Sequence record: PZ445473.1
DNA: 64,000 nt
From: a phage
Direction: 5' to 3' (one strand)
Shown here: one piece after another, positions 30,385 through 54,131 of the stretch
Position numbering within the stretch: position 1 is the stretch's first letter
How the letters are laid out: the number at the start of each line of letters is the position of its first letter
Notes under the pieces: model-generated
Seen by the model: only the letters and a program-made list of their open reading frames with translations
What the model was told of the DNA's origin: nothing
Database searches by the model: none
Made by a program: the position numbers and the translations under genes

Positions 30385-32229
30385 TTAGTGTGTATGCATC
30401 CAGTTTAACCCAATCTGACAATCAGAAGCCAGAGGACATTCCATGTTCAAGTACTCACCAGCCTTCTTAACACAAAGCTCGGTGTACTCTTTGAGTTTCT
30501 GTACATCATTACGGTTCACTGAGAACTGGCCCTCATCGTGCATATCAATTACCTTAGCACAACGAACTCCATCTTTCTCAATCCACTTGTTAAGGAACAT
30601 CATAGCATATTTCATAACAACAGCACCAGCACATTGCAGGAGTGTGTTAAGGGCTTTATGAACCATAACCTTACCAGTGGCATCCCGTCTCATTGTAATC
30701 TTACGACCATCAACGCCAATCAAATACCCTTGAGCAGCTTTCTCTGTCATACGATCAATGAGGATTGCAATACATGGGTTCTCTGCCAAGAAGCGTGCTC
30801 GCATCACTGAACCTTCGTCAGCTCCACCACCTACGATTGAACCAAGCTTAGCATCACCAGCACCATAGTTAAACGCGTAGATAAACGTTTTAGCGTTGTC
30901 ACGAGTAGGAAGACCAGCAAGTTTCTGGTTGTGGGAGTGGATATCACCTTCAAGAAGGATATCACGATACATAATAGCAGAAGCTAAACCACGTTCTGCC
31001 AGAGCTTTCTTAGCTGGATTATTCTCTTCGATTGCTTCAGCAAGCATATCCCTACACTCTTTAATGAGGTAGTGAGCGAGCATACGAAGTTCAAGTCCAG
31101 AACCATCATACCCTAAGAATACTTCTTTACCAGCGGGTATGTAATATTTGTAAGCACCTACAGGCTTATCTTTCTTCCCCGGCTTACCTTTCTCGTAAAT
31201 TACGTTAGTACCTTTTCGTATATAACAACCATCAGGAACAACGTTAGTAATAACGAAAGGACGAGAGTGATCACTGTCTGAATTATAGTCAGACTCAAAC
31301 AAACTGCGACACTCATGACCAAACAAACCACGGGAGGGAATATTAACCACGATACGATGTTTGAATCGAAAAGTTGGCGTAGCGCAGCTGTTAGCTTCTG
31401 CCGAAAGTTTACCATCTTCGCGTTCCTTTGCTATGAGTCCACTGATAAGACCTAGCCTGTGAGCCGCTACAACGCGCCTCTTAAGCAAACTTCCAACACT
31501 CCCTAGCTCGCCCCCTAACCCTTCTTCAAGAGTCTCCTCGAGGTTTGTAGGAGCTGTAGGCCACTTGTTTGAGGTAGCTAGTGCTATCTTAATCTCATCA
31601 AACGTGATAGGTCTACTTCGGTTAGGGTTTAAACCTAAACCAAACACATAAGCCTTCATATAGTTCTTAGTCTTAAACCTAAAATGCTTCTCTAAGAACC
31701 TCCTAATATCTGCGTCAACCATCTCGGCTGTCTGCTTCTGTTTAGCATTACCTCGCATCCAAGCTGAATACCATGCTTGGTATGTCCCATACTTTCGAAT
31801 ATCTTTCTTGATTTCAAAAGTATTCCAAGGTTTCTTTGATACGTTAAACTCTGGAGGAAGAAAACCCTCATCCATAAGGGCTTCTTTAACTCGTGCATCT
31901 TTCGATGGGTCAAAGTCTACATACTCAACACAGGTGAATGCTCCACCAATGTCTTCTCTCTTAAGGCCAACTCTATCACAGTAGGCTTGAGGCCACTTCT
32001 GTAAAGCTCCAGACTTCTTAAATGGCTTCATATAAGTAGAGCCATCTAATCTCATCTTAGGTAAGAGAGGGATCAGTTCTTTGTCGATATTAACAATAAT
32101 CTCTTTAAGGAGGTGAACATACCACCGAGCATTTCTTCGGTTGAAACTCACTCCGTGCTTCGCTTGCTTAGAGATTATATCAGCGACAGTCATCTCTGTC
32201 AAAAATGGGAGAGCGTCCGGGTTGCTCAC
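30385..32229 (-). CDS. DNA polymerase, family A (polymerase domain only)
   Basis: Motif A LGYDGSGLELRMLAHY, motif B RDNAKTFIYAFNYGAGDAKLG, motif C VIDMHDEGQF. Confidence 0.85.
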   Translation of the reverse strand: MSNPDALPFLTEMTVADIISKQAKHGVSFNRRNARWYVHLLKEIIVNIDKELIPLLPKMRLDGSTYMKPFKKSGALQKWPQAYCDRVGLKREDIGGAFTCVEYVDFDPSKDARVKEALMDEGFLPPEFNVSKKPWNTFEIKKDIRKYGTYQAWYSAWMRGNAKQKQTAEMVDADIRRFLEKHFRFKTKNYMKAYVFGLGLNPNRSRPITFDEIKIALATSNKWPTAPTNLEETLEEGLGGELGSVGSLLKRRVVAAHRLGLISGLIAKEREDGKLSAEANSCATPTFRFKHRIVVNIPSRGLFGHECRSLFESDYNSDSDHSRPFVITNVVPDGCYIRKGTNVIYEKGKPGKKDKPVGAYKYYIPAGKEVFLGYDGSGLELRMLAHYLIKECRDMLAEAIEENNPAKKALAERGLASAIMYRDILLEGDIHSHNQKLAGLPTRDNAKTFIYAFNYGAGDAKLGSIVGGGADEGSVMRARFLAENPCIAILIDRMTEKAAQGYLIGVDGRKITMRRDATGKVMVHKALNTLLQCAGAVVMKYAMMFLNKWIEKDGVRCAKVIDMHDEGQFSVNRNDVQKLKEYTELCVKKAGEYLNMECPLASDCQIGLNWMHTH

Positions 32230-35907: not shown

Positions 35908-36183
35908 TTATTTATTGCTCAGTGCTGTGTCCAAAAATGCTTTCAGGTTTGCTTCAGTCTGCATACCAGAGAGGCTGTAATGTGCGCCACTATTCCGGTC
36001 AGGCACAACGAAAGCAGGAATGCTTCGTACACCATACTTAACAGCTTGTTCACGACCGTCACCCTCAAGGATATTAATCTCTTCCACTTCTACATCGAAC
36101 TCCTTAACAACCTTCTCAAAGATAGGAGCCATTGCTTTACATGGAGCACACTGATCACTATAAAACTTAATTACTTTAGACAT
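35908..36183 (-). CDS. thioredoxin/glutaredoxin-fold protein
   Basis: 91 aa with CAPC redox motif in thioredoxin-like context. Confidence 0.55.
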   Translation of the reverse strand: MSKVIKFYSDQCAPCKAMAPIFEKVVKEFDVEVEEINILEGDGREQAVKYGVRSIPAFVVPDRNSGAHYSLSGMQTEANLKAFLDTALSNK

Positions 36184-36428: not shown

Positions 36429-36992
36429 TTAGTAAGACACATCACCACTTGAGTGGGACATGTTGCTCTTGACGAAGTAGCAATACTTGCCAAGACCTTC
36501 ATTGATTTCTTGAAGCATACTTTGATCGACTGGATAAGTGGCTAAATCGCCATCAAACTCATCCATCTTCTCAATAATACACATCAAGGTCATGCACATA
36601 TCAGAGAGCATACCGTCCATGTCTAGATCAGCGTTACCCTCTGAGAACCAAGCATGAGAGAGGTAGTTAGCTGCTGTAGCATCCACTTTAACACAGTGGT
36701 AACGCATACGTTCAGCAATACGATCTCCTACTTGTCGTGCGTAATCTTCCAGCTCGTCAAACATACCATGAACACCCTGAAATCCTGCACCAGAGACGTT
36801 CCAGTGGTAGTTTTTAGCTTTGATGTGCAAGAGTTCCATATTAGCTTGTAAGCAGCTCAGGATGTGTTCTAGGCTGTTTCCGCTAATCATGCCTTGCATT
36901 GTTTCAAGGCGAGAGATTGAAAGCTCAGACCGGTCTAACATGCTGTAGCTGTCACGACCAATCTCAGGTAAATCAAAGACATTCTTATGCAT
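36429..36992 (-). CDS. Dps/ferritin-like protein
   Basis: HIKAKNYHWNVSGAGFQGVHGMFDELEDYARQVGDRIAERM matches the Dps ferroxidase-region pattern; start taken at ATG 36992. Confidence 0.5.
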   Translation of the reverse strand: MHKNVFDLPEIGRDSYSMLDRSELSISRLETMQGMISGNSLEHILSCLQANMELLHIKAKNYHWNVSGAGFQGVHGMFDELEDYARQVGDRIAERMRYHCVKVDATAANYLSHAWFSEGNADLDMDGMLSDMCMTLMCIIEKMDEFDGDLATYPVDQSMLQEINEGLGKYCYFVKSNMSHSSGDVSY

Positions 36993-37314
36993 TTGGGTTT
37001 TCTCCATCAAGTTCAACTGAGTTAGCAACGTTACGTGCAATATTGTCCATTACCTGCTGGGTAATTACGATGCAGTTCTGTGGGTCTACTGACTTAGAAC
37101 GCCCCATTTCTGGGTCATACACCTTAACACGCTTAGCAGTTGAACCTGTAACCTGAAGAACCTTCAACAGATATCCCTGATTACCGATAGACCAAGCAAC
37201 AACATCACGATTCTTGATAAAGCGACCAAGCATATCACGATGATAAAACTGTTGCATCACCTTGGATTTTGTAATCTCTTCAGTGGGCGGGGCCACTTTA
37301 CTCAAATCTAACAT
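36985..37314 (-). CDS. hypothetical protein
   Basis: 109-aa ORF. Confidence 0.4.
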   Translation of the reverse strand: MLDLSKVAPPTEEITKSKVMQQFYHRDMLGRFIKNRDVVAWSIGNQGYLLKVLQVTGSTAKRVKVYDPEMGRSKSVDPQNCIVITQQVMDNIARNVANSVELDGENPNA

Positions 37315-37596: not shown

Positions 37597-38130
37597 TTAC
37601 ACACCTTTAGATGCAACTACACCTTCAGAGTTATTATAACGACCCTTCACTGCATAGGAATGCTCCCCTGCATGAGAGTGCTCAAACATGACCATCTGAC
37701 CAACACGCATACCAGCACGAACTCGTAAGCTGTGGTGCTTTGTTACGTTATGAAATTCAAATGTCAGCTTACTGCTATTAAATCCAGCGTCTGCCCACCC
37801 AGCGTGGAGGTGGTTCAAACCACAACGAGCCATAGATGAACGCAGGACAAACAGGCTTGAAATGTTATCTGGAAGGTTAAACTCCTCCATAGAGTGAGCC
37901 AAGAAGAACTGACCCGGAGTGATAACCAAACCCTCTTCAGGAATTTTTACTTCCTTCCACTGAAGATTCTCTTTCGCATCAATATCAACGATGCCATCAG
38001 CCTGTTCTTCAACAAGGATAGTATCACCAATACGGATATCCACACTAGCAGCGTTAACATACTTATGCTCCGCATCCAGATAGCCATTGTCAATTACATC
38101 ATGCAGTTCAATACTTCCTAGTAAACTCAT
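37597..38130 (-). CDS. dCTP deaminase/dUTPase-family protein
   Basis: RSSMARCGL, AGWADAGF and GMRVGQMVMF match dCTP deaminase family motifs. Confidence 0.6.
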   Translation of the reverse strand: MSLLGSIELHDVIDNGYLDAEHKYVNAASVDIRIGDTILVEEQADGIVDIDAKENLQWKEVKIPEEGLVITPGQFFLAHSMEEFNLPDNISSLFVLRSSMARCGLNHLHAGWADAGFNSSKLTFEFHNVTKHHSLRVRAGMRVGQMVMFEHSHAGEHSYAVKGRYNNSEGVVASKGV

Positions 38131-38139
38131 TCTTATTCC

Positions 38140-39384
38140 TTAGTTGTTTGTTTCTATGTCAAAAGAGAATCCACGACCCGCTTCATCGGCAAACCGAGCT
38201 GTATGGGTTTGAGGCTCTAATACTTCAGGGTTGTTAGCAATAAAGCGAGCGGCGAGATTATCTTCCACATCTTGACTAGAGGGCTGACGTGCACTAACGT
38301 TGAAGCCATTCGGTCGACCACGAGAAGGACTAGACATCCATCTTTCCATAGAATCACTTGTAACACCAAGAGCTTCTTCAAAAGATGTTCTACGGGTAGA
38401 GCTTAGATTTCGTGCTTCATGTGCCACTCTTGCAGGGGTTACAAATAACCCTTCAATTGCATTATGTCGATTAGGTTCATCTTCCCGACCAAGGAGATCA
38501 CCTCCTGCATTAGTTGTTAAGTTTGTCAACCCTTCAGACCAATACGCACGAATCTGGCTAGAGCCATAAATGCCTGACATTAACTGAATCTCTTCATAAG
38601 GTATATCAAAGAATCGACTCATGTCTCGGTTAACACAATACTGAGCACTTGTTGTATCCTCAATAAGAGCAACCTGACCCCGTTCGTTGACCAGATGACT
38701 AACCGGCTGAGGTGTGGGAAGGTGTCGAGTTTGGGCCATGTATTGATATGCAGCTGCTGGATAGGAAAATCTCAACACTTGCGAGTTAGGCCACTTCTTG
38801 TGAACATACCTGATTTCACGACTAGAAACAACCACTGGACAAGGGGCGGTCATAGCCAAGTATCCATGAGGGGTCATGAATAAGTTATCAAGAGTCATCG
38901 CACCACGGCACATCATAGGAAAATTATCCAATACCTCTTCAATAGAAGTAGGATAATTAAACATGAATTGGATACGAACACCATTCCACTGAAACTCAAT
39001 AATATCAGTGAATGTTAATTGAGAACCCCCAGCATATGGCTCATCTGTAGCTTCAACAAGAAGAGATGAATACTCAATATCTTGTGATTCAAGCCATTCC
39101 TTCACATTACTTTCAATCTCCCGCCCAAGCATTTGCCACTGCTCGGTTGGGATAAAGGTGTTTCGAGTTCTTGGTGTTTGTCCTCTGACAATAAAGATAT
39201 CGATGTCATGTGGAGCTGTGTTATTAAGAACAGCATCACGAATAGCCCCACCAGTAATGATAGGGCAAATACCATCTGGAATCAAGTTGTTGTTAATCAA
39301 CTGTTCAATGAAGTGACGACCAACAGTGATATCAGGTTGTTGAGCAACCTTATCTTCAATTCGGTTAATCGGGATAACAATCAT
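38140..39384 (-). CDS. nucleotidyltransferase of the CCA-adding/poly(A) polymerase type
   Basis: ITGGAIRDAVLNNTAPHDIDIF matches the GG.VRD...DiDi head-domain motif; ATG at 39384 is adjacent to the upstream stop. Confidence 0.45.
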   Translation of the reverse strand: MIVIPINRIEDKVAQQPDITVGRHFIEQLINNNLIPDGICPIITGGAIRDAVLNNTAPHDIDIFIVRGQTPRTRNTFIPTEQWQMLGREIESNVKEWLESQDIEYSSLLVEATDEPYAGGSQLTFTDIIEFQWNGVRIQFMFNYPTSIEEVLDNFPMMCRGAMTLDNLFMTPHGYLAMTAPCPVVVSSREIRYVHKKWPNSQVLRFSYPAAAYQYMAQTRHLPTPQPVSHLVNERGQVALIEDTTSAQYCVNRDMSRFFDIPYEEIQLMSGIYGSSQIRAYWSEGLTNLTTNAGGDLLGREDEPNRHNAIEGLFVTPARVAHEARNLSSTRRTSFEEALGVTSDSMERWMSSPSRGRPNGFNVSARQPSSQDVEDNLAARFIANNPEVLEPQTHTARFADEAGRGFSFDIETNN

Positions 39385-39385
39385 T

Positions 39386-39940
39386 TTACATTTTCCAATA
39401 TAATGAAGGTGGGTCATAAGGATCAAATCCTGTGTGTTCACACAAGTATTTATAAACCTTAACAGTTAAGTTAACGTCCTGTTCACAGTAAGTAAACATA
39501 TCTTCAGTGAAAGCATCCCATGCTTCCTCCTGCTCACCGTAATCTCCTTTAAGTTCCCCTAAGAACTCACCCCATTGCTTCAAACCGTGACCTCTTGGGC
39601 CATGTCTAGGGTCGCCTTTCGGATACTCAGGACTGTCACCAATACGGTCAGGTTTAAGATATCGACTAAGACACAGAGTGTCGAAGACGTTAAAACGATA
39701 TTTAATCAGATTGGGATATATTTTCTTCAGAGCACAAAGGTCGAAGTCAATAATGTTATGGCCCACGAGCACATCAGCTTCTGTAAGTTTACGAATCCCA
39801 TCTTCAATTTGGTGAGGCCTGTAGCCCCACCTTTCACCAGTTTCAACATCGAAAATGTAAATACACCATACTTTAGTTATATCATCGTACAGTGCGTTAC
39901 TTTCGATATCAAATGCAAACACTTTCTTTTTCTTTACCAC
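39386..39940 (-). CDS. 3'-5' exonuclease (DEDD family), stand-alone
   Basis: Exo I FAFDIESN, Exo [10 protein letters not shown], Exo III YCEQDV. Confidence 0.7.
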
Positions 39941-41724
39941 GGTGAAGCTCCATCTGCTTGGTTAACGAGAGAAGCTGCATCCTCTCCGTTAGTTAAAACG
40001 AATGGATTATCTTCATCAACTTCAAAGTCTTCCCTTTCTACAAGTCTACCGGTTTCACTGATATACTTAGTATAACAGACACCAGTCTGACCGTAGTTAC
40101 GTTCTTTCAGTAATCGAATGACCGAGAGGTTCTTAGCTAAGCCATCAGCTTGCTTGTCACGTTCAAAGCCAATGATGCACTGACACCAACGCATAAGGGA
40201 ACGAGAACCAGTGAACTGCACTTCACGTACCTGTCCACCTTCTTCGTGAGGAGCACCACCTGCCGGGGCATTAAGGTGAGATAACACGAAAGCTGTAAAG
40301 TCTAATTCTTTACACATACCAGCAAGCTCGGAAGCAATCTTACTGATTTCAGTGTTAATCTCTGAAGGTGTTAAATGAGATACCAGAGCGGTAATGTTAT
40401 CAAGGATGATGAACTTACACTGGTTTTCAACTACCCAGAAACGTATACACTGTTTAATGTCTTCCCATTCATTCTGTCCGAAGTTGTCATACAAGAAGAA
40501 TTTATCTGCATAACGAAGTGCTTCATTACGCAAATCTTCCTCGTCATATTCAACATCAGGTCGGTGGAAAGGGATTGATGCTGACTTACCAGCAATATTC
40601 TTAACAGACATGCCTACCTTCTCTTCCAAGAAGAAGCCACCCCCATTAAAACCATGCTCTAAGCACAGATGAGCAACCAGTTCGTGAGCAATTAGTGTTT
40701 TACCACTGCCTACACCACCACCTATTGCTACCACCTCTCCCCATCGAATACCGAAGGTCATCTCATTCAGAGTTTTCCACGGATAGGGAATACCCCACTC
40801 CGCTTTCTTCAGAGCATCATCAAGGCAATCAAAGATTGTTACAGCGCCAGCAGGAGATTCCCGCTTTGCTGAATACTTGAGAATGTTGAATAACTCTTGA
40901 CCACGACCAGACAGAAGCATGTCATTCGCATCCTTAATCTCTTTCTCCACACCGTTGTATGGGAAGGTTCCTTTAGGGATACGAGCAAATTTGACATGAG
41001 GGAATAAAGAACGACCTTTTGTTAAAGCTATCTCACCTGCATCGTCATTGTCCATGCAGAGCACAACCTCCTCAAAACCATTTACGAAGTCCCGATTACG
41101 AGACAACACAGAAGAGATTGAACCTGCACCGAACGGTAAAGAAACACATGCTGGTTTAATGTTTGTTGCATTTGTAAAAGCTGTAAGGACGTGGAAACCA
41201 GACATACAAGATAGCGGGTCTTCAAAAATGAATAGCTTCTTGTTGTACACATCCCCACGTTGAGCTTGTGCCATACCAAAAAGATCTGCTTCTTTTACAC
41301 TACCTACGTAATAGAACTTCTTACTATCTAGCAGCTTAACCTCGTAACCAACAATGTTTCCATCACGTTCACGAGGAAAGAAGTAGCTGTCCGGAGTCTG
41401 TCCATCAGTCTGACTTAGACCGATGCGACACTCAAAACGCTCTGATACAGCTTTAGGGATTAGACGTCGAGTGAGTTCACCCTGAGGAAGTTCTAAGCAA
41501 TCATCTAAGACTTCTCTTAACTCTTCAGGGGATAACTCTTTCTTCTCATTTGGAGTAGGTGCAGTGCCCTTTTCGAACACTTCGTAATTCCCACAACGGT
41601 TACAACTTCCCCACTCCTCACCTGTCTCTTCGTTACGGAAGAGAATCATGTGGTTGTGGGTTTTATCACGACCATGAGAGATACATTCTTTACAACCTGT
41701 GTCTCCCAAAATGATCTTTGACAT
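39934..41724 (-). CDS. bifunctional primase-helicase
   Basis: N-terminal Cys-rich zinc motif (CKECISHG...CNRCG), central acidic MDNDDAGE, C-terminal Walker [10 protein letters not shown]. Confidence 0.8.
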
Positions 41725-41943: not shown

Positions 41944-42363
41944 TCAAGATTCACTTTTCAGATACTCTGACCAGTCGCCAGATTCAACCAGAACGTCTTG
42001 TTCTTCGTCGATGTGATAAATCCAAGCGATAACAGTTTCACCTGAGTCCATCTTAACTGGAATCTGAGTGCGTTGATAGAAACTATCTTCAGGGCTACGT
42101 TTGTTGTAACCTTCCAGTCGGTCATATGGACCTTCCAGACCTTCTTTGTCAGTAGCAAACACTTCTACACGAACAGGCTTATTGTTATTGCTGTGTGCGA
42201 GAGAGATGCTTGGGAAGTAGGAACCACCATAACGGAACAGATCAAAGTTGTCTTCAGTCCAACCTTCACCAATTGACTTAGCACCAGCTCGGTCATTAAC
42301 TAAATAGTTAGCTTGACCACGACGAAGAGAACCATAAGTTGCTACGTAAATTACTTCTGACAT
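41944..42363 (-). CDS. gamma-glutamyl cyclotransferase-like (GGCT/AIG2 fold) protein
   Basis: ATYGSLRRGQANY ... GSYFP ... YDRLEGY follows the GGCT-like YGS...G.YP...E pattern. Confidence 0.5.
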   Translation of the reverse strand: MSEVIYVATYGSLRRGQANYLVNDRAGAKSIGEGWTEDNFDLFRYGGSYFPSISLAHSNNNKPVRVEVFATDKEGLEGPYDRLEGYNKRSPEDSFYQRTQIPVKMDSGETVIAWIYHIDEEQDVLVESGDWSEYLKSES

Positions 42364-42869
42364 TATTTATACCTTTGTTGGTTTGTTTGGTTTATCCGAA
42401 CTAGCCTCCTCTTTCGAAGAGGCTAAAGCAGATTACTCTGTAATAAAGATTTTGATTACACCGCAGATTGCCGCACTTTCAAATACTGCAACAGCTTCAC
42501 TCCCTTGAAAAAAGGCCACCTTGCCATCAGAGAAGTTAAACATGTCGGCATCTAGGTCCATTGCTCGCATTTCACCAGCTGCATTGGTATCTTTAAACAG
42601 AACTTTATACTTATTCACAGATATGTTACTCCCTTGTCTTGTTGTGCTTCAGTGATGATACGTTCTACACATTCCATAGAATATTTATCACCACGTTTCA
42701 GAAAAGTTACAATTGCAGAGAACTGGTTGCCAATCATTCGCTGATTAGTGATACCCCATTCTTCACACAATTTACGCAACTCTTTACGAGAGCCTACAAT
42801 CAGAGGCTCTTTTTGTTCCATCATTCCATTTTGTACTAGATCTTCCAATGAAAACATATCCATATATCC

Positions 42870-44063
42870 TTAGTAGTTTACAACAGTACCATCATTCAGG
42901 GTAATGCTATTAATCTGCAACACACGACCAAGCTGACGATTACTGATTGGTGCGTTCCATCCAGAACGGTAGAAGTTACGACCGCAGAAGAACAAGATCA
43001 CATTACTTGCTACAATTGAACCATTCTCAGGGTGCTTAATGTTAGCGATATAATAACCACGACGAAGATTGCGACGGGTGATTGGAGTGATCTCTAACCC
43101 TTGCTCTTCAACTTGCATTGTTTCAGGAACAGGTTCCGAAGACTCTTCAGCAACTGGCTCAGCTGTCAATGCAGAGTTCTCATCACCTGCCGATTCAGCA
43201 GATTCTTCCACTTCTTCAACAGGCAGTTCGTAAGCAACACGGTAGTTAGGCTCAACTCCAGAGAAGCTCTTAACAAATTCAACGATGTTATGAGTGTAAG
43301 TTTCCAGAGTTGTACCAGTCAGGCCCGGAGCTGTATTGACTTCCAGAACCCAAGCGTTAGTTCCTTTACTGATCAGGTCAACAGCACCGAAGTTTAAACC
43401 TAGAGCAGATACAGCTTTGTGAGCTTGAATCAGAACTTGATCAGGAGGAGCTTCAGTGAATGCGTTAGAGTAAACCCAACCAGTGTGATGGTTACGAATA
43501 TCTTCACGATAGCTTTCCAGTTCACGATAACCGTTACGACGGATTTTCTTCTGAACGTAAGTGATAACGCCTTCGAACACATGAACACGCCACTCACGAC
43601 GTGGGCCTTGAATACCACGGGTATAGAGAGGGGCGGGAGCTATACCTTCACCTGGAAGACGAACAGTGATACCTTCTCCAGAATGACCATTCAAAATAGC
43701 ACGTTCATAAACAATACTATCCAGATTCCATTCTGACGCCTGAGCAGCACGGATTGAGTACTCTACAGTGGATACCCCAGCAGCTTCCAGAGTTTGAAAT
43801 GCTGTGATTTTGTTAGCCGCTCGGTTCAGAGCTTCAACAGGATTCAGTACAGTTGCACCACCAAAGAAAGAAGCATCATAACGACGGTTGCCATAGTTTA
43901 TAACAATATCACCAGTACGAGAACGATAACGAGAACCCTCTGATACCAGAGACATTACGTTAGCATTTAAGCGAAGTTCCTGAACCTTAGTATTGATTGC
44001 AGAAGTAAGTTCACGAACTGAATCAGAAGGGCCATAAGGAAGAACACGGATACGAGTAGTCAT
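42870..44063 (-). CDS. ATP-grasp fold enzyme
   Basis: GAVDLISKGTNAWVLEVNTAPGL matches the ATP-grasp C-terminal G.D.....VLEVN..PG motif. Confidence 0.55.
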   Translation of the reverse strand: MTTRIRVLPYGPSDSVRELTSAINTKVQELRLNANVMSLVSEGSRYRSRTGDIVINYGNRRYDASFFGGATVLNPVEALNRAANKITAFQTLEAAGVSTVEYSIRAAQASEWNLDSIVYERAILNGHSGEGITVRLPGEGIAPAPLYTRGIQGPRREWRVHVFEGVITYVQKKIRRNGYRELESYREDIRNHHTGWVYSNAFTEAPPDQVLIQAHKAVSALGLNFGAVDLISKGTNAWVLEVNTAPGLTGTTLETYTHNIVEFVKSFSGVEPNYRVAYELPVEEVEESAESAGDENSALTAEPVAEESSEPVPETMQVEEQGLEITPITRRNLRRGYYIANIKHPENGSIVASNVILFFCGRNFYRSGWNAPISNRQLGRVLQINSITLNDGTVVNY

Positions 44064-44508
44064 TGTTAGATACCTTTAAGTTTAAGAATTTCGTTACGAG
44101 TTTTTTGAATCTGAGCTTCAATTTCGAAGTAGTCATTGAACGCATCGTTCTCTACTTCATCGGATGGTGCATCAATCAGACCGAAAGCAAACGGATACAG
44201 CTTTCGCTGCTCCGTTACTAATTCGATATGAACTCCTATGTAATACTGTAGGAGAGTAATCTTCGGTTTCTTAGGAACCAGACTTAACATGAGGTTCTAC
44301 CTTAATGCCTTTAATTTTTACATAATCAGCAAGTACGTTATTGATCACCGTTGGGAATGGAACCTCAACTTGTGTCTCAAGTACTTGACCAATACCAGCT
44401 TGCATCCACTTCTGGATTGCACGAAGGTTATCACATCCTGTGCTCGTCATCGGGATACGTCGAGTAGTTACAACGTTATCCAACATCATTTTTCTGATTT
44501 CCATAAAC

Positions 44509-46539
44509 TTAACCTCTATTCAATGAACATTTAGGAGAATTACAATAAACTTGATTCATAGAACCAAGCGTACAACTTTCAGCATCGCGCCACGGAATCT
44601 GCTTAAAACACCCTGAGCAGTAGCCGAGGGTTGACCACATTGCTTTGGTGAAGTCAGTGCTTCGGTTTCCGTCGAAGCTGACAACAGTTTTTCGGAGAGC
44701 TGTTCGTGATTCAGGAAACACACCTGCTTTCTCAGCAGGTTCCTCCTTTTTTGGCTTAGTTGAGATTGCAAAAATACTGTTGCTACGTTTCTCAACATAA
44801 GCATCAACAACATCCTCCAGAGTAATGCCTGTCTGTTTCGCTGAGGAAGGTAATATAGTCATACGACCAATCATATCTTCAGTTACACGTAAAGCAAATT
44901 CAGGACGACGGGAGTTTGTTGTATCTGTTGCTTTAATCCAGACATAACCATCTTTGATCGTAGCATTAGATACTTTCTTCTTTATATCTACAGCGCAGAC
45001 TTTACAGATATCTTCACCACGAAGACGACTGAGTTCATCATCAAACTCGTTCTCTGTTTTAACTTCACCACAGATTTCACAAACACCAATAGGAGTTTCC
45101 TCCTCTTCTTCATCTTTAGGCTTAGTCAAACCTTCCAGACATTCAGGGTGCCAGTAGCATTGATATGCGAAGACTGCTTTAGGTGCATCCTTCCAATCAA
45201 TGTGTTTATCACAACCGCCACAATCACCATGAGAATGTGCTTCCCAGAATTTACGAGTGATAGTAACGCCATTCTTGTTGACGAAACTATCATTCATATC
45301 AAAAGGGATATCATCATCAAAGTCAGCAGTAGTTGACTCAGGCTCCTTTTTCTCCAGAGATGGGTCAACAAAACGACCTGCTGTGATCACTAAACGAACC
45401 ATAGCATTAACTTCGGAGATACAGGATACTGTCCCACGGTAAACAATTTTAGGGTCTTTCAGGGCATCCTGATAAGCCTTAATGTCTACGTTATGAACAT
45501 CACCTTCGATATACTCTTGAGATTTCTCATCGTAGATATAACCAATCATCTTACCACGAGAAGGAACAGCACCAGCAGTTGCATAAGGGACAAACTCATG
45601 TGGTGTGATCTCCACAGTCATGTCGCGGCGAATGTCAATGTTTCGATCGCTTGCGATTTTGTTTTGACTTACCACTGCGTTTCTTCGACGAACGTCTGCC
45701 GCTGTCACTCCCGGCTTCGTGTCGTAAGGATTGCTTGTACTGCTTTTTGAGGAACTTTGATAGTTGCTTTGGCTGTAGTTGTTCGAGTAGTAATTGCCCC
45801 AACGATTGATTACCGTAAAAACCGGAAGCTCGTGGGCGACCTCTTCAACTAGAGTCATGCTGTTGTTTGACACATCAAAGATGTATTCTGTACCAACTTT
45901 ACATTCAAAGTGCTCATCAATGCGATTCTTGTGAGACCTAGAACGCTTCAGAATCCACATCAACATATCTTCTTCAGAAGCACCAAACCAATCTCTGTTA
46001 CAACGTGCAAGATGGAAAGGACGCTCTTCATTACGGATGATATGAAGACGATTATCAGAAGCATCATGCCAGATTAAGGTGAAAGCACCATCCAGCTTTT
46101 GAATAGTCTCTGCTGCACCAATAGTGTTAATAGAGTGGCAGATGTTTTCACTGTCTACCTCGAAGTTTTTACTGTCAGGTAACAGGTCTTGGTTCATCAA
46201 GGTTCCGTTATGAACCAGAGTGATGTTACCGTGTTGGAAAGGATGGGCGTTCTTGGCGTTAACTGCACCTTTCGTTGCATGACGGCTGTGACCAACAATC
46301 CATGAAGGTGCTACAGTGTAAGCTGTTTCACCAGTGGTGTGCTTCTTGTACTCATCTTGAAGGATGAATGCGAAAGAAGGAAGTGCCTCTTTATAAGTGA
46401 AGACTTCTTTAGTGCTTTTACGCTGACCAAAGATACCAGAGGAGTGCTGTCCTCGGAATACTCCAGCATAAAAGAGTTGGTTAAATATATCTAAATCAGT
46501 GCTTGACAGATTACCGCCAGCTAATACGATGCCACAAAT
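44509..46539 (-). CDS. class II (Ntn) glutamine amidotransferase-domain protein with Cys-rich C-terminal region; apparent AUU start
   Basis: Frame is open upstream of the track start to 46539; encodes (I)CGIVLAGG...RGQHSSGIFG...GHSRHATKG...NAHPF...LVHNGT; Cys codon 46534-46536 is preceded by ATT and a TAG stop, with AGGTGG 8 nt upstream. Confidence 0.55.
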   Translation of the reverse strand: MCGIVLAGGNLSSTDLDIFNQLFYAGVFRGQHSSGIFGQRKSTKEVFTYKEALPSFAFILQDEYKKHTTGETAYTVAPSWIVGHSRHATKGAVNAKNAHPFQHGNITLVHNGTLMNQDLLPDSKNFEVDSENICHSINTIGAAETIQKLDGAFTLIWHDASDNRLHIIRNEERPFHLARCNRDWFGASEEDMLMWILKRSRSHKNRIDEHFECKVGTEYIFDVSNNSMTLVEEVAHELPVFTVINRWGNYYSNNYSQSNYQSSSKSSTSNPYDTKPGVTAADVRRRNAVVSQNKIASDRNIDIRRDMTVEITPHEFVPYATAGAVPSRGKMIGYIYDEKSQEYIEGDVHNVDIKAYQDALKDPKIVYRGTVSCISEVNAMVRLVITAGRFVDPSLEKKEPESTTADFDDDIPFDMNDSFVNKNGVTITRKFWEAHSHGDCGGCDKHIDWKDAPKAVFAYQCYWHPECLEGLTKPKDEEEEETPIGVCEICGEVKTENEFDDELSRLRGEDICKVCAVDIKKKVSNATIKDGYVWIKATDTTNSRRPEFALRVTEDMIGRMTILPSSAKQTGITLEDVVDAYVEKRSNSIFAISTKPKKEEPAEKAGVFPESRTALRKTVVSFDGNRSTDFTKAMWSTLGYCSGCFKQIPWRDAESCTLGSMNQVYCNSPKCSLNRG

Positions 46540-46618
46540 TTTCTAATCCACCTGAAGGGTAAACCCTTTCATCTAATTAACCTTTAAATTGTGCCCCTTC
46601 GTCAGAGGCACCCATTGA

Positions 46619-47722
46619 TTACAGCGCTTGCTCTAACTGATTTTCCAGATGATCTGGAATATATCCTGTGATGTTGTTATCACTGTGTCCTGACTCACGT
46701 AGCAAGTCAAAAATAGCACGGATACGCTGTTCTGATGCAGATCGTACAGTAGATAGGTCAGTTGTACGAAGCATAACCAGAATTTCTTGGTACAAGTTGT
46801 TAGCGTTCCCTCGAATATACCCAAGGAACCCATAGAAGTCTGGAATAAGACGTAAGTCAACAAGAACTTCTCCGTTGGAGTCGGTTCGACGTAAACGAAT
46901 ACGACCAGACTGCTCTACTTCATGAGAACGACAATACAAAACATCACGGGCCATACAATACCCTGAATGCAAATCCGATTCGTCCAGATTGTAATCCAGA
47001 GGAAGATAAGGAAGCATTGGGGCAAATCGTACAGTATTTAAATGCTCAATAAACTGGTCATTGCTCATCTCTGCGTTATCTAAAGCCAGCTTCTTCAACA
47101 TTAAGAAGCGGTTAACCAGATTGAGAAGTTGACCACGTTTCCACTTAGGCTCGCTGATACGAAACTCAATTGAGCCGTATTGGGCAAGTGGCAGAAGGTT
47201 CAGAGATGTATACTTATCCCATGAACGAACCAGACGGTTGAAGAACTCTTCACCGTCGTAGTTAAATGCGTCAGAGGCGTTCATTACCTGTGCTTGTACC
47301 ACTGCGAAAGCAGGGCAGAAGTTGCTACGGTAACGATGATAGCCTGAACACTTGAACAACATTTTTTCATAGAAGGTCCAAGCGAGGATGGTTTTCTTGA
47401 GGATATTACTATCAGCATCCCTCATATCCATATGAACGTGAGTAGAGCAACGCCAAGTCCCCTCGGCGTGCGATTCAGCTACTGCTTCACTCAGGTTGTT
47501 GATAGCGTCTAACAACTCCTGTCCATTGTAAGGTCGTGAACATACCATTTCACAACCATTACGCAGGGAACCATCCTCTGTACAATCCCACATATCTGCT
47601 TCAATATGGTCGGAACCTTCGAGTTCTAGTTCGATACCGATACCGCACTGAAGTGCAATTGAACTATGCGCCTCAGTTAAACGACCTTCTCGGTATCCAA
47701 AAGTTTGCGCTACAGTTGTCAT
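46619..47722 (-). CDS. glutamine synthetase-like amidoligase (Amidoligase_2-like)
   Basis: GIGIELELEG...EDGSL..GCEMVCSRP and THVHMD resemble amidoligase family motifs. Confidence 0.4.
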   Translation of the reverse strand: MTTVAQTFGYREGRLTEAHSSIALQCGIGIELELEGSDHIEADMWDCTEDGSLRNGCEMVCSRPYNGQELLDAINNLSEAVAESHAEGTWRCSTHVHMDMRDADSNILKKTILAWTFYEKMLFKCSGYHRYRSNFCPAFAVVQAQVMNASDAFNYDGEEFFNRLVRSWDKYTSLNLLPLAQYGSIEFRISEPKWKRGQLLNLVNRFLMLKKLALDNAEMSNDQFIEHLNTVRFAPMLPYLPLDYNLDESDLHSGYCMARDVLYCRSHEVEQSGRIRLRRTDSNGEVLVDLRLIPDFYGFLGYIRGNANNLYQEILVMLRTTDLSTVRSASEQRIRAIFDLLRESGHSDNNITGYIPDHLENQLEQAL

Positions 47723-48336
47723 AACGAATCCACCAACGTAATATTATAATTGCTAAGATTTTCAGAGATGTGATGAAAATGTTCCAGAAGTCGCATCGGT
47801 TGCTGACCATAAGAGTCACGAGGTGCTTCTAGATCTACTTGTCCTACCAGTGCACCTTTATAATGCACTTTACCATCTGTAGGGTTGATGTAAATGTAAC
47901 GAGTGACCAATCCATCAAACTCTGGATTGAACAAACTGTAAACCATCTCCCCAGAGATAGAACGACCAATCCCAGGAGCATTTCGAATCTTATTACCCAT
48001 TAAACCCTTTGCTCTCTGACGAACAGGGTTAATATGAGTCCAGCTCACAGTGTTACCGTTATGGAACAGATAACCAACATCAGGTGATTCAAGAATCAAG
48101 GTTGGGTCGAACACTGGAATATTCATCACAGTGTTTCGAAGATTCCCATGCTCGTTCTTGTACCACTGCTCTACAACAAAATACAGAGCCTGCTCTGCTT
48201 CGTGAGAGAAGTCATCGCTGCGGAAGTTACCGCTCTGCTCAACACCAATCACAAAACATGGAAGGTTGATATTACCTGCTCGTTTAGCAATCCATGTACC
48301 GTTATAGTAATGAGAAAAATCAGATACTAAGCTCAC
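47719..48336 (-). CDS. hypothetical protein (amidoligase cluster)
   Basis: 205-aa ORF; start overlaps the upstream stop. Confidence 0.45.
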   Translation of the reverse strand: MSLVSDFSHYYNGTWIAKRAGNINLPCFVIGVEQSGNFRSDDFSHEAEQALYFVVEQWYKNEHGNLRNTVMNIPVFDPTLILESPDVGYLFHNGNTVSWTHINPVRQRAKGLMGNKIRNAPGIGRSISGEMVYSLFNPEFDGLVTRYIYINPTDGKVHYKGALVGQVDLEAPRDSYGQQPMRLLEHFHHISENLSNYNITLVDSL

Positions 48337-48345
48337 GATAACCTC

Positions 48346-49152
48346 TTATGCTACCTGAAGGCGTTTAATCTGCTGGTCCGCTTCTTTAACGTTATTACCG
48401 TTAATGATTTCATGAAGCTTCTCAATCGGAAGGCGAGAGTGCAATGCCATCAGAGTGGACATGTCACACTGCTGAACAACCTTGTCAACCTGATCATAAA
48501 CAAACTTACGGTTTTCACGATCACTAATCCAGAAGTTAGACAGGGAACGATATTCAATACCATAGTCCTTGTAGCGGATTGCAGATGCTTTACCGTAGAG
48601 TTCTTTACGGCGAGTGTCTTTATCCATAATAACTGCTGGGAGGGATAGGAAGTAGTCACACAGCACACCCAGCATCATCTGAGTTTGCAGGGTGATATCC
48701 AAAGCACCAACTACGCCAAGATGTACGTGACCACCGGCAGTACGAAGCCCCTTATTTTGAGAAGTCGGGGATGGGTTCTTCTGACCAGTGAAAGCGTTGA
48801 AATCAGGAGTACATCCAAAGATGAACGCTGATTCATTGAAAGTCTTCATCTCTTCTTCAGTGAAGATGTGAGAGCTAACACCCGGAGCTGTTTCCATGTC
48901 CAGTTTGTTCAGGACATTATTGGTGAGATCGATACCACGTTGCATGTTGTCATTAAACGCTTCAAAACCACTCTGTGGGTCAATATCAAACTCAGCCAGT
49001 ACGTTGTCCTCTTGAAGACGAACATCCTTAGCCAGAGCGATCTTATCGTCCTTAGAACAACCTAACAGACCAGCTACAGAAGTGATGATTCCTTTGCTGG
49101 TACGAACGAACATTTCCGGATCCGATCCTATTAAGAATTTGCGCTTAGTCAT
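48346..49152 (-). CDS. hypothetical protein, possible second COOH-NH2 ligase-type enzyme
   Basis: FLIGSDPEMFV and GGHVHLGV loosely resemble ligase E..E/H.H motifs. Confidence 0.35.
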   Translation of the reverse strand: MTKRKFLIGSDPEMFVRTSKGIITSVAGLLGCSKDDKIALAKDVRLQEDNVLAEFDIDPQSGFEAFNDNMQRGIDLTNNVLNKLDMETAPGVSSHIFTEEEMKTFNESAFIFGCTPDFNAFTGQKNPSPTSQNKGLRTAGGHVHLGVVGALDITLQTQMMLGVLCDYFLSLPAVIMDKDTRRKELYGKASAIRYKDYGIEYRSLSNFWISDRENRKFVYDQVDKVVQQCDMSTLMALHSRLPIEKLHEIINGNNVKEADQQIKRLQVA

Positions 49153-50116
49153 TGTAATACTCCACTAGTTCAGAAAAGAGAGATGAGATTGTGTTACCGA
49201 TTTCTTCAGGATTAAGACCAGAATCTATTCCAGTACGCTGAATTATTCGTGCTGTAAAGTTTTGTACTGTAATGTTTTCCAACTTATTATCTATTGCTTC
49301 ACGTTTGTGACCATAACAGTTGGACCAGAGTTTTAACCACTCTGACATTGTTTCATACTCATCTGGATCTTGATCTTTAGCACGAGCAAATCTTCGTAAG
49401 ACATCTGTGTTGTGGTTACGAACATAACCATTCTCGTTGTCACCAACACCGAAGGGGTTTTGAACCCATACTTGCTTCGTGTATTCATCAGAGTCAACAA
49501 CCAAAGGAAGGAATGCTGCTGCTGACATATTGTTGTCAATAACAACAGACGTGCTTTCACTACTCCCATTGGAAGCTCCTCGTTGAGACCACCTACCAAA
49601 GAAGTCACGACCCAACCCAGCTAACAACAGAGCGATGCCAATGCGTTTACGCTTCAGCCACTCTTCCCTGTCTTCAATTCCTTCTGCTAGGAAATCCATT
49701 CCACGATACTGCCCTTCCAAAATGCTACGGAAGAGCATAAGTCCTGTGAAGATTTGATCTGCTGGATGCTCACGGAGGTTGACAGCTACGCTATTCGCTG
49801 AAGTGATTGTGAATACATCGCGATAGCAAGACATGGAGTTCATAATATCTGCTGTTTCAACCAAGTTCTTTTCAATATAAGATGCATCATGACCGTGAAA
49901 AGAGTGAGTCCAGTAATTCAGCATCTCCAGTTGCAAGTTGATATCACGGTTGAAGCGTCTATAACGCCCCTCTTCCATGATAACTTCGCCATTAATATCG
50001 CTTACACATTGGCCTTGCATGTAGTTGTGAATACCGAAGCACCCACGACCTAAGAACTTCTGTTCCCCTAAATCTTGTTGAAGATTCAGAGGTACGATCG
50101 TTGTGGAGATTGACAT
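49145..50116 (-). CDS. hypothetical protein (amidoligase cluster)
   Basis: 323-aa ORF. Confidence 0.45.
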   Translation of the reverse strand: MSISTTIVPLNLQQDLGEQKFLGRGCFGIHNYMQGQCVSDINGEVIMEEGRYRRFNRDINLQLEMLNYWTHSFHGHDASYIEKNLVETADIMNSMSCYRDVFTITSANSVAVNLREHPADQIFTGLMLFRSILEGQYRGMDFLAEGIEDREEWLKRKRIGIALLLAGLGRDFFGRWSQRGASNGSSESTSVVIDNNMSAAAFLPLVVDSDEYTKQVWVQNPFGVGDNENGYVRNHNTDVLRRFARAKDQDPDEYETMSEWLKLWSNCYGHKREAIDNKLENITVQNFTARIIQRTGIDSGLNPEEIGNTISSLFSELVEYYND

Positions 50117-50126
50117 AACTAACCTT

Positions 50127-51323
50127 TTATTTTCCTAAAAATAATCCGCTCATAATACCATCCCACTCAGAGGATGGAATCACTGAATACTCCGAACTTT
50201 GGTCCAGAGTTCCACTACTAAATCTCTGAACAATGTTATAGATGTTGAACAGGTCTTTAGCCTCAGTACGGATACCGTAGACTAATTTATCAGATGTTCT
50301 TTCATCTTTAGATACCCGACGAGCAAAATTAACCAGAAGGTTGTCACATTTAAGCGTTTCTGACCCACTCTCTACCAAATCAGGGTGCATCACAGGCAAG
50401 AACATCGAGTTATTGACTCGCAACTCTGCTGTTTCGTCATTCTCATAATGAATCCACTTAAAGTCTTCATCACGGAAGTGACCACAACCGTCTCTGTACG
50501 ACTGCTGACGCCAAGGCACTTTAAATGCTTTAGCATACTTATCAGCCATGCCAACTGTAAACAACGACGCTGGGAAGATGCAAGCATCCCAATCATTACC
50601 GACCAGAGTTGCTTTCGTTTCACCCAAGAGGTTAGTATAAGTGCTAATCATTCGGGAATAAATATAAGCCTGAAGGATTGTCCAACCTTCAATCAACCAT
50701 TTATGAAGGAAGGTTTCAACTTGACTCTCTTCGTCTTCGCAATAGAAGGTTCGGTCTAGCATTAAATAGAACAGACAACGATCAGCAGGGATGTTCTCAG
50801 TTGCTACACCCATAAAACCTTTCTCGTGCCAGCGTAAACAGGAGGGACGATCTTTGTCCACAAATGCTTCCATAGCTTCCAGTACAGCACGAGGTGAGGT
50901 TTGGTATTCAGGGTTTTTACTATTCCAACGATCAATGTTGTTCTTAGGAGGTGTGTCTTCATCTTCATACGAACACCAACTTAAAGCTTCAGATACGTGC
51001 TTTTCATCACACCAATGCCTAAAACCTAACATCTTCATGTGAGTTCCGGAGTTCCAGATATGCTTGATTTTACACATATCCATCTCTCGGCTTAACAGGA
51101 ACTCTTCCCCATCAGCGCTACGAACGTTAGCTTCTTCATTCCACACTCGAACGTGCATATTCCACCCATAAGTTGCCTCATACGTGTTAGGGTCGAAGTA
51201 TTCATATTCGTCATCATCTTCATCAACGCCACCGTTATAGTTGCGGAGCTGAAGGAATCCATAGCAAGGAGGATAGACCGTTAAAACTCTACCTTCAATA
51301 TCTTCTAATGTTACTGGAAACAT
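50127..51323 (-). CDS. hypothetical protein (amidoligase cluster)
   Basis: 398-aa ORF. Confidence 0.45.
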   Translation of the reverse strand: MFPVTLEDIEGRVLTVYPPCYGFLQLRNYNGGVDEDDDEYEYFDPNTYEATYGWNMHVRVWNEEANVRSADGEEFLLSREMDMCKIKHIWNSGTHMKMLGFRHWCDEKHVSEALSWCSYEDEDTPPKNNIDRWNSKNPEYQTSPRAVLEAMEAFVDKDRPSCLRWHEKGFMGVATENIPADRCLFYLMLDRTFYCEDEESQVETFLHKWLIEGWTILQAYIYSRMISTYTNLLGETKATLVGNDWDACIFPASLFTVGMADKYAKAFKVPWRQQSYRDGCGHFRDEDFKWIHYENDETAELRVNNSMFLPVMHPDLVESGSETLKCDNLLVNFARRVSKDERTSDKLVYGIRTEAKDLFNIYNIVQRFSSGTLDQSSEYSVIPSSEWDGIMSGLFLGK

Positions 51324-51334
51324 TATACCAACCT

Positions 51335-51697
51335 CTATTGGTTTTTAATCAACTCAATAGACTTACGGATATAAAGAATATCTCGGAAGTTTCTGTAGTT
51401 GTTCATAAATTGATGCTTCTGGAACTCAGCTTCTTCCAGAGCTTTCTTTGCGTCTGCATAGCCCTTACGAGCAAGATATACAACACGCTCTGGTAACATG
51501 TTTGCACGATGGATTAGATACTTGTGAGCTTTCATGTTGCTTTGCTCACGAGCAATCTTACCTTTAGCAACTTTGATACCATTTGCAATCCAAGCAAGTT
51601 CTTGCTCAAGCTCATCGTTGGACATTCCACCGAGGTTTGATGCAACCTTGTTCAGAGTTTCAATATTAACGTTGCCCTTGATGGGACGTGTATTCAT
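51335..51697 (-). CDS. hypothetical protein
   Basis: 120-aa ORF. Confidence 0.4.
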   Translation of the reverse strand: MNTRPIKGNVNIETLNKVASNLGGMSNDELEQELAWIANGIKVAKGKIAREQSNMKAHKYLIHRANMLPERVVYLARKGYADAKKALEEAEFQKHQFMNNYRNFRDILYIRKSIELIKNQ

Positions 51698-51699
51698 AC

Positions 51700-51852
51700 T
51701 TACTCCTGTTGTTTACACTCGTCAATAACCCACTGATAAGTGGATTGCCCAGAAAAGAAACACTGAATAAATCCAGACGTTCTCTGCGTTACCAGTGCTA
51801 GTGCACAAATCACTACCGCTGCTGCTAGCAGTTTTAAATCTAATTTAGACAT
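51700..51852 (-). CDS. small signal-peptide protein
   Basis: Internal ATG at 51852 with GAGAGG RBS; MSKLDLKLLAAAVVICALALV. Confidence 0.35.
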   Translation of the reverse strand: MSKLDLKLLAAAVVICALALVTQRTSGFIQCFFSGQSTYQWVIDECKQQE

Positions 51853-52052
51853 ATTTCCTCTCTTTGAATTTAAAAAAGGACTCTCCGAAAAGAGCCAAGC
51901 TTTAAATCCAAAAAAGATATTACCCAATATCTGTGGATAACCTGCTCTTAAAATATCTATCCGACGGATGTTTGAGGAACACTCCTCGCCCTAGCATCGG
52001 CCCCATACGGGAAATAAATTAAGATTAGGTTAGTTGAGTCAGAATAACTCAC

Positions 52053-53676: not shown

Positions 53677-53958
53677 TCACCACTCCTTACCGGTTGTAGT
53701 TGTAGAGCCACCACACCACTGTGCATTAGATAAGGTTTTAGTCTCCTCATCCATTGCTGCACCATTCATGCATGAGATACCATTGTAACGCATATCAATT
53801 TCGCCAGAAGGAACCTTCTCACCTTTATGCCAGCGAGATACACAAATACCTTCCACTGCTACTGCACACCATCCATCAGGACGGCTCTGTACGCAGCCTG
53901 TAAGGGCCACACAGACAATGAAGATACAGATTAAGGATATTACACCACCCCAACTCAT
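53677..53958 (-). CDS. lipoprotein
   Basis: Signal peptide with lipobox LTGC (MSWGGVISLICIFIVCVALTGC); AGGAG RBS. Confidence 0.5.
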   Translation of the reverse strand: MSWGGVISLICIFIVCVALTGCVQSRPDGWCAVAVEGICVSRWHKGEKVPSGEIDMRYNGISCMNGAAMDEETKTLSNAQWCGGSTTTTGKEW

Positions 53959-53977
53959 AACTATCTCCTAATTGATT

Positions 53978-54022
53978 TGGTGCGCCCTACAGGATTTGAA
54001 CCTGTAACCAATAGCTTAGAAG
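53978..54022 (-). pseudogene. tRNA 3'-half remnant (anticodon loop, T-arm, acceptor 3' strand, CCA) lacking a foldable 5' half
   Basis: Minus-strand CTTCTAA GCTAT TGGTT ACAGG TTCAAAT CCTGT AGGGCGC A CCA; no complementary 5' acceptor or anticodon strand upstream. Confidence 0.4.
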
Positions 54023-54056
54023 TAAAACTTCTATCCTTGTAATGAAGTTTTCATTG

Positions 54057-54131
54057 TGGCGTTCCCTCGTGGAATCGAACCACGAATAAGAGCTTAGAAG
54101 GCTCCAGTTATATCCGTTTAACTAAGGGAAC
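54057..54131 (-). tRNA. tRNA-Arg (anticodon UCU)
   Basis: Hand-folded cloverleaf: acceptor GTTCCCT/AGGGAAC, D stem GTTA/TAAC, anticodon stem GGAGC/GCTCT, loop CTTCTAA, T arm CGTGG-TTCGATT-CCACG, discriminator G, CCA. Confidence 0.8.

Follow-up and report, generated by a model that had tools for sequence, protein, structure and literature searches.

The DNA between positions 38,140 and 39,940 of a 64,000-nucleotide phage stretch (sequence record PZ445473.1; this whole stretch is called the window hereinafter) raises the question of what is done by the nucleotidyltransferase that it encodes, for which a first-pass annotation made from the sequence alone had considered a tRNA-repair role plausible. 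The segment is 100% identical to that of Escherichia phage JacquesWildberger_Bas92 (PQ850610), a phiEco32-like podovirus of the genus Kuravirus (subfamily Gordonclarkvirinae) belonging to the second BASEL collection, and it is matched at 80-97% by 74 further records of E. coli/Shigella phages; the two genes lying on it are labelled “nucleotidyltransferase” and “DNA polymerase exonuclease subunit” in GenBank. The nucleotidyltransferase gene (PHROG 12715) maps at 38140-39384 on the minus strand, as do all the motifs described below, and codes for a protein of 414 amino acids. The analyses reported here indicate that this protein is unlikely to be a genuine CCA-adding enzyme devoted to tRNA repair, even though the type of its catalytic head domain had been correctly recognized.

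Indeed, the GGAIRD...DIDIF motif that had marked the gene is a real one, finding support in the open reading frame (ORF), in Pfam, in a family profile and in the predicted fold. GGAIRD corresponds to residues 45-50 (39235-39252) and DIDIF to residues 60-64 (39193-39207), and both are embedded in motif A (G45 G46 A I R49 D50 ... P58 H D60 I D62 I F64; 39193-39252). The Pfam model of the PolyA_pol head (PF01743) matched the protein with E=0.002 and 18.9 bits, which is below the cut-off of 23 bits, and seven other members of the family gave 13.7-21.5 bits or no match. A profile built on 32 family sequences matched solved CCA-adding enzymes over 27 motif A residues (E=0.002), and the hhalign comparison with the E. 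coli CCA enzyme and poly(A) polymerase I included only 23-27 residues, that is, motif A alone; the significant sequence similarity to solved CCA-adding enzymes is thus confined to this motif. No match for the nucleotidyltransferase was retrieved from NCBIfam, from PADLOC or by phmmer against the PDB; for orthologues, PF26128 is listed in precomputed annotations.

The structural comparison reached further. The AlphaFold2 model of residues 1-240, obtained from 32 diverse sequences, had a predicted local distance difference test score (pLDDT) of 88.7 and a predicted template modelling score of 0.83, and the top 40 Foldseek matches of this core model in the PDB were all class II CCA-, CC- or A-adding enzymes. 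The Foldseek alignments cover only 141-165 residues, and the global root-mean-square deviation is high, as is typical of a head-neck hinge. On the basis of the model, the nucleotidyltransferase is thus predicted to have a Pol-beta-type head fold of class II (the CCA-adding/poly(A) polymerase type), and the class II-type head domain assigned at the first pass is borne out by fold and motif A together. The model also predicts a neck-like helix in common with its best structural matches, the class II tRNA nucleotidyltransferases and the poly(A) polymerase PcnB (for example, 1MIV from Bacillus, 3H37 from T. maritima and 3AQL from E. coli), from which the Bas92 protein differs in an additional N-terminal strand plus helices (residues 1-31) and in a long helix (residues 80-100).

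In the 32 members of the family, which are only 24-40% identical, residues G45, G46, R49, D50, D60, D62, F64, I128, Q139, M141, P156, Y193 and K197 are invariant, and positions 127 and 190 are always occupied by Asp or Glu. The second catalytic carboxylate, whose absence would have spoken against the assignment, is therefore present, D60 and D62 being both invariant. Motif A would provide the start of the helix binding the nucleoside triphosphate (NTP) and, with D60 and D62, the two metal-binding carboxylates.

The conserved and confidently modelled part of the protein stops at about residue 215, so that the head and the neck-like region (residues 1-215; 38740-39384) represent the portion conserved family-wide. 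The tRNA-binding body and tail, for which a domain search had been proposed, turned out to be absent: no body or tail domain was matched beyond this point, and the conserved portion spans about 215 residues versus about 400 in class II enzymes. The remaining C-terminal region (residues 216-414; 38143-38739) is variable, acidic and devoid of domain matches, and its conserved islands include YWSEGL and the RFIANNPEVLEPQ...FADEAGRG end. The full-length model, built from 11 near-identical sequences, was unusable (pLDDT 42) and, given the shallow alignment, represents only weak evidence of tail disorder.

How widespread is this kind of protein? HMMER, run exhaustively against 1.84 billion representative proteins, revealed only 32 clusters of the family, with lengths of 278-482 amino acids. 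Their common part runs from residue 1 to about 215, and a short helix and a W-[ST]-x-G motif recur beyond it; otherwise the C-terminal region lacks conservation, being absent or different in the members of 278-340 amino acids. The long ORF of Bas92 matched PHROG 12715 with E=2.9e-221 over its residues 20-392, and the distant members P0077 and P0062 also matched this PHROG (about 1e-33). The family is small and specific to the phiEco32-like lineage. Its best viral structural neighbours are the proteins of PHROG 1614, which comprises “nucleotidyltransferase / poly(A) polymerase head” proteins of 167-254 amino acids from phiKMV-, T7-, PP2- and phiAS7-like podoviruses; the PHROG 1614 profile matched residues 34-216 (E=5e-8), and hhalign of the two families gave a probability of 89% and E=2.5e-6 over residues 35-156. 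A word-indexed protein search with LKD16 ORF16 retrieved only two proteins, and its profile version added few distant members.

Like the Bas92 protein, the PHROG 1614 enzymes of Autographiviridae (phiKMV and LKD16 ORF16, Pectobacterium PP2 gp18, gh-1 and, judging by its description, Klebsiella fHe-Kpn01 Gp22) are class II-like, acidic, fast-evolving head-plus-neck proteins encoded inside a podovirus replication module. The gene order is helicase, nucleotidyltransferase, ligase and polymerase in phiKMV and LKD16, ligase, nucleotidyltransferase and polymerase in PP2, and lysozyme, nucleotidyltransferase, HNH and primase-helicase in gh-1. They differ from the Bas92 family in lacking the long tail and any link to a split polymerase or a dCTP deaminase, and in keeping a “VDL” Asp and an “FD.T.NQ” remnant of motif B. 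Since their D120 and D137 correspond to Q139 and P156 here, PHROG 1614 would represent a sister family, of which the Bas92 protein does not appear to be a member. Such genes occur in 37 of 46 Pectobacterium Autographiviridae genomes versus 60 of more than 500 elsewhere (PMC7693777), and one of the products, the 182-amino-acid class II-like enzyme Gp22 of fHe-Kpn01, is toxic in E. coli (PMC7291057). As for PHROG 12715 itself, the SU10 orthologue has been detected by mass spectrometry (PMC4281155). A weak relative (motif A region, E=3e-5) was also observed on a 63-kb viral contig (L020, 3965-6060), directly upstream of a distant primase-helicase, an arrangement differing from the order of the phiEco32 lineage.

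The short phage enzymes were used as a bridge in mapping motifs B and D, since the direct profile comparison reached motif A only. Their invariant F-D-[YF]-T-[LI]-N-Q aligns with motif B (R-R-D-F-T-I-N) of E. coli poly(A) polymerase I, and hhalign in turn places P156, preceded by F or M at position 155, opposite the invariant D137 of their “FD” motif. Motif B (RRD, for ribose recognition) therefore does not seem to be kept in the Bas92 family, its Asp having apparently been replaced by the invariant Pro156 (F155-P156; 38917-38922). In the same comparison, Q139 aligns with the invariant D120 of the “VDL” of the short podovirus nucleotidyltransferases. The Pol-beta superfamily follows the pattern hG[GS], [DE]h[DE]h, h[DE]h (Kuchta et al. 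2009, as quoted in PMC7291057), and the “VDL” Asp fits its h[DE]h element, the proposed third carboxylate, to which attention was drawn in Gp22 of fHe-Kpn01 (PMC7291057). Q139 belongs to a beta-hairpin (residues 125-146; 38947-39012) that also harbors D/E127, I128 and M141; position 127, invariantly acidic, and position 130, mostly acidic (E or D), both lie on a strand paired in this hairpin. Concerning motif D, the helix starting at R189 (R189-[D/E]190-x-x-Y193-x-x-K196-K197-x-P199; 38788-38820) was aligned by MAFFT with the canonical G-E-D-P-x-R-x-x-R-x-x-R-F, so that D/E190 matches the Asp of EDxxR and the invariant Y193 falls at the i+3 position of the templating Arg. Hence, of the EDxxR pair, the amino-acid template that selects C and A, the acidic residue would be kept and the Arg replaced by Tyr. 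This mapping is consistent with the succession of elements predicted downstream of motif B, namely strand, strand, helix, strand and helix.

What do these replacements imply for the repair role? The CCA-adding family, as it is defined, excludes the Bas92 protein, which has neither body and tail, nor RRD, nor the Asp/Arg template, and whose PF01743 score, like that of every member tested, is sub-threshold; in addition, the E. coli CCA enzyme falls in a different PHROG (2244, E=1.9e-132), which the Bas92 family does not match. The phage tRNA invoked as being nearby does not help either: the tRNA-Arg(TCT) gene (54057-54131, minus strand), the only Rfam match and the sole tRNA in the window, is located at a distance of 14.7 kb, and the CCA of its 3' end is genome-encoded. 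Beside it, the GenBank annotation places an HNH endonuclease gene on the other strand (53700-54131). Thus, it appears unlikely that the protein is a genuine enzyme repairing the CCA 3' end of tRNAs and counteracting host nucleases or toxins that attack the acceptor end. Such a role would be in agreement with a motif A of the CCA-enzyme type, with the tRNA nucleotidyltransferases being the closest structural neighbours, and with the label used by earlier annotators, “class II CCA-adding enzyme domain” (also the name of P0026); moreover, the fast evolution and the host-linked spread of the relatives would fit an arms race, and CCA-adding enzymes have been proposed as tRNA repair tools in jumbo phages (PMC7824862). 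Besides the altered signature, however, no tRNA gene was found in the phiKMV-type replication modules examined that carry a short enzyme, and the toxicity of one relative to E. coli is not what is expected of a repair enzyme. The host, E. coli, has a CCA enzyme of its own, which also counts against this role.

The position of the gene provides a second line of evidence. All homologues, down to 25% identity, share an MI.IP N-terminus; for this reason we place the start of the nucleotidyltransferase at the ATG 39382-39384 (MIVIPIN...), within an ORF spanning 38140-39441. The alternative starts GTG 39441 and ATG 39417 were discarded, the N-termini of the homologues fitting ATG 39382-39384; the GenBank coding sequence (PQ850610, Bas92_0055), which begins at ATG 39417, would overlap the exonuclease gene by 32 nucleotides. 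With the corrected start, the stop codon of the exonuclease (TAA, 39386-39388) is followed by a single A and then by the nucleotidyltransferase ATG (TAA-A-ATG, 39382-39388). The adjacency of the two genes postulated at the first pass was therefore right, a one-base spacer separating them, but it required a different start codon. The spacer measures 0-18 nucleotides in the relatives examined, down to 27% identity, and there is no convincing terminator-like site between the helicase and the dCTP deaminase genes; promoter-like sites did not exceed the chance level. The one-base spacer, the conservation of the tight junction and the lack of a terminator in the operon make the suggested translational coupling plausible, and the nucleotidyltransferase is probably translationally coupled to the exonuclease subunit. 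It is transcribed within an operon for replication and nucleotide metabolism.

The upstream neighbour was rightly described as a stand-alone DEDD exonuclease: it is a DEDDy 3'-5' exonuclease of 184 amino acids (39386-39940, minus strand) with the motifs DIE (residues 11-13), NIIDFD (62-67) and YCEQD (151-155), matching Pfam DNA_pol_A_exo1 (E=3.8e-9) and the PHROG “DNA polymerase exonuclease subunit”. It represents the proofreading domain that has become separated from a T7-like polymerase, and it forms one subunit of a split family A DNA polymerase whose polymerase subunit (614 amino acids; 30385-32229, minus strand) starts 7.2 kb downstream of the exonuclease stop. The two halves are separated by a block whose first gene is the nucleotidyltransferase, followed by a dCTP deaminase (37597-38130, minus strand; Pfam DCD, E=3.6e-34), which begins 9 nucleotides past the nucleotidyltransferase stop, and by genes for a ferritin/Dps-like protein, thioredoxin, ThyX, PhoH and small ORFs. 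On the other side, the stop of a T7 gp4-like primase-helicase (39934-41724, minus strand) overlaps the exonuclease start by 7 nucleotides. Split T7-like family A polymerases with stand-alone exonuclease and polymerase genes are also found in S-SBP1-like cyanophages, where, in contrast to Bas92, the two halves are adjacent (PMC10201439).

The comparison of twelve distinct genomic arrangements (27-91% identity) revealed that the order primase-helicase, exonuclease (171-201 amino acids), nucleotidyltransferase and dCTP deaminase is kept in every family member examined. The nucleotidyltransferase is present in all twelve of these split-polymerase arrangements and beside none of twelve unsplit outgroup polymerases; in the latter, more distant podoviral contigs (L036-L047), an unsplit polymerase directly follows the primase-helicase, and the exonuclease and polymerase domains share one ORF of 591-659 amino acids where the contig is complete. 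The related podoviral contigs with an unsplit polymerase gene measure 38-48 kb.

The third line of evidence concerns the evolutionary rate. When KBNP1711 and ECBP2, which belong to sister genera and infect E. coli, were compared with Bas92, the identity was 94% for the primase-helicase, 95-96% for the dCTP deaminase and 80-87% for the exonuclease, versus 36-39% for the nucleotidyltransferase core, with tails that cannot be aligned; for the DNA, megablast aligned the flanks (about 87%) but not the nucleotidyltransferase gene. In close Kuraviruses, the ratio of nonsynonymous to synonymous substitution rates (dN/dS) was 0.10 in the core, 0.31-0.45 in the tail and 0.01-0.09 in the flanking genes, and the dS of the core was about twice that of the flanks. 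Given a core dN/dS of about 0.10, the nucleotidyltransferase is functional and under purifying selection, although far less constrained than its neighbours. Positive selection was not shown, pairwise dN/dS being below 1 throughout and distant pairs being saturated. The short enzymes are likewise divergent, the identity being 36% between LKD16 and phiKMV and 48% between Q19 and PP47 (PMC7693777).

On one otherwise near-identical Kuravirus contig (L013), the dCTP deaminase (5333-5887) is only 59% identical, versus 99% in the siblings, with saturated dS, which indicates a single-gene replacement by recombination. On the same contig (1038-3448), the primase-helicase is interrupted, two matching ORFs lying about 590 bp apart; the interruption is probably an insertion of the homing endonuclease or intein type, and an insertion type at such a primase-helicase locus is mentioned by the BASEL authors (PMC11990801).

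How can these data be reconciled? Tentatively, we regard the protein as a minimal, lineage-specific offshoot of the class II Pol-beta-fold nucleotidyltransferases, consisting of a head, a neck-like region and a variable acidic C-terminal extension. As regards its activity, the idea that we favour, without holding it to be established, is that of an NTP-Mg-binding enzyme performing untemplated addition of nucleotides to a 3'-OH, most probably of RNA, with an accessory function in the interaction with the host. According to this idea, the intact motif A (GGxxRD ... DxD) would still bind NTP-Mg2+, and the nucleotide would be transferred without a template to a 3'-OH, most probably at the end of an RNA. 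CCA would not be built in the canonical manner by such a protein, which is devoid of the body and tail that measure the tRNA, of the RRD that senses the ribose and of the Asp/Arg pair that acts as base template. The enzyme might then serve the interaction with, or the takeover of, the host rather than housekeeping tRNA maturation, as is suggested by the rate pattern and by the short relatives, whose distribution is host-linked and one of which is toxic.

Several points weigh against this interpretation. The motif assignments were derived from alignments at about 20% identity and from the order of secondary structure elements. A Gln at the position of the third carboxylate may mean that two-metal catalysis is impaired or rearranged. 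The whole protein is acidic (isoelectric point about 5) and has no recognisable nucleic-acid-binding module; net charge was discarded as an indicator of RNA binding, since the E. coli CCA enzyme is equally acidic in its head and neck. The raised dS suggests that part of the divergence came from the exchange of alleles by recombination, and the constant position in the replication module would be equally compatible with a DNA-related role. Lastly, we found in the literature no biochemical characterisation of the PHROG 12715 or the PHROG 1614 family.

The Gln139 replacement leads to a different possibility, namely that the protein no longer polymerises. It would then either bind nucleotides as a pseudoenzyme or regulator, for instance in partnership with the exonuclease or helicase or by sensing or sequestering nucleotides like a sponge, or make or modify a small nucleotide product. 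Two Asp residues invariant in the sister family are here an invariant Gln139 and an invariant Pro156; the weaker fold matches include pseudo-nucleotidyltransferases such as MiD49, Utp22 and NOL6; in the long, variable and acidic tail there are short conserved motifs like those that mediate protein contacts; and the gene is tightly coupled to that of the exonuclease. However, the GG.RD and D.D residues do not vary in any member, a strictness not usually seen in pseudoenzymes with this fold, and the acidic residues D/E127 and, in most members, E/D130, near the active-site hairpin, could substitute for the lost carboxylate. Moreover, the strongest fold matches are active RNA nucleotidyltransferases, and PADLOC gave no match to known defence or signalling families. 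Taken together, we consider a non-polymerising protein improbable.

The same degree of doubt applies to the possibility that the nucleotidyltransferase acts on DNA or deoxynucleoside triphosphates (dNTPs), either in a pathway of covalent DNA modification or through an untemplated activity at 3' ends during replication. This is what the invariant gene order and the strict association with split polymerases might suggest, as might the position of the short relatives among helicase, ligase and polymerase genes; synteny within one lineage may, however, be mere inheritance. In CCA enzymes, RRD is the sensor of the 2'-OH, and its loss could admit dNTPs; on the other hand, no DNA-binding domain was found in the nucleotidyltransferase, and we know of no class II-type nucleotidyltransferase acting on DNA, nor of any report of modified DNA in the phiKMV/T7-like phages that carry a related enzyme. 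The BASEL authors, who noticed the conserved dCTP deaminase and nucleotidyltransferase locus, speculated on DNA modification on account of a strong resistance to restriction for which no mechanism is known (PMC11990801). The window contains 29 EcoRV, 6 EcoKI and 87 EcoP1 sites; these sites are not depleted, and for these three enzymes site avoidance was consequently rejected as the cause of the resistance. The DNA containing deoxyuridine (dU) that was suggested in the same paper (PMC11990801) is unlikely, because ThyX is encoded in the same operon, and this also speaks against a DNA-related role of that kind. Least probable of all, in our opinion, is a retargeting of the enzyme from RNA to DNA or dNTPs, made possible by the disappearance of RRD and of the Asp/Arg template; acting with the split polymerase and the adjacent dCTP deaminase to give a DNA modification or end structure, such an enzyme would explain, if this were true, the broad restriction resistance of phiEco32-like phages.

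Some further features of the genome were recorded. CCWGG (Dcm/EcoRII) is nearly absent from the window (1-64000), with 4 occurrences observed versus about 74 expected from base composition; GATC is depleted about twofold (129 versus 238-299 expected), and twelve palindromic hexamers, including the PstI and KpnI sites, are missing. Upstream of the primase-helicase, at about 41944-52000 on the minus strand, there is a cluster typical of phiEco32-like phages, which codes for a gamma-glutamyl cyclotransferase-like protein, a RimK-like ATP-grasp enzyme, a glutamine amidotransferase, an amidoligase and a COOH-NH2 ligase, and which is also kept in a distant relative (L002). Between the polymerase halves, the thioredoxin and the ferritin/Dps-like protein are encoded at 35908-36183 and 36429-37040, respectively. 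The T7 polymerase borrows the host thioredoxin as a processivity factor, and the phage thioredoxin could fill such a role.

The existence of the gene and its fold assignment were already known from databases and literature; what is new is that the protein fails the membership test and has an altered active-site signature, and that its gene sits where the polymerase is split and contrasts strongly in rate with the flanking genes. The failure of the tests that define the CCA-adding family prevents a wrong transfer of function to one of the few enzymes of the early operon having no assigned role, which databases label as a CCA-adding enzyme. This also matters for the phages themselves, since the Gordonclarkvirinae, which are common on E. 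coli, have a broad host range and find use in therapy studies, are reported to resist nearly all the defence systems tested, by a mechanism that is not known (PMC11990801). From a structural viewpoint, the Bas92 protein would be a compact natural variant of the class II nucleotidyltransferases, composed of head and neck only, and from an evolutionary one, its gene is a hypervariable island in a replication operon that is otherwise 94-96% conserved. BASEL phages infecting E. coli K-12 make the nucleotidyltransferase accessible to experiments. In view of the failed CCA tests, of the hypervariability and of the relatives, one of them toxic to E. coli, in the replication modules of many podoviruses, it can reasonably be considered a candidate enzyme of host interaction or counter-defence.

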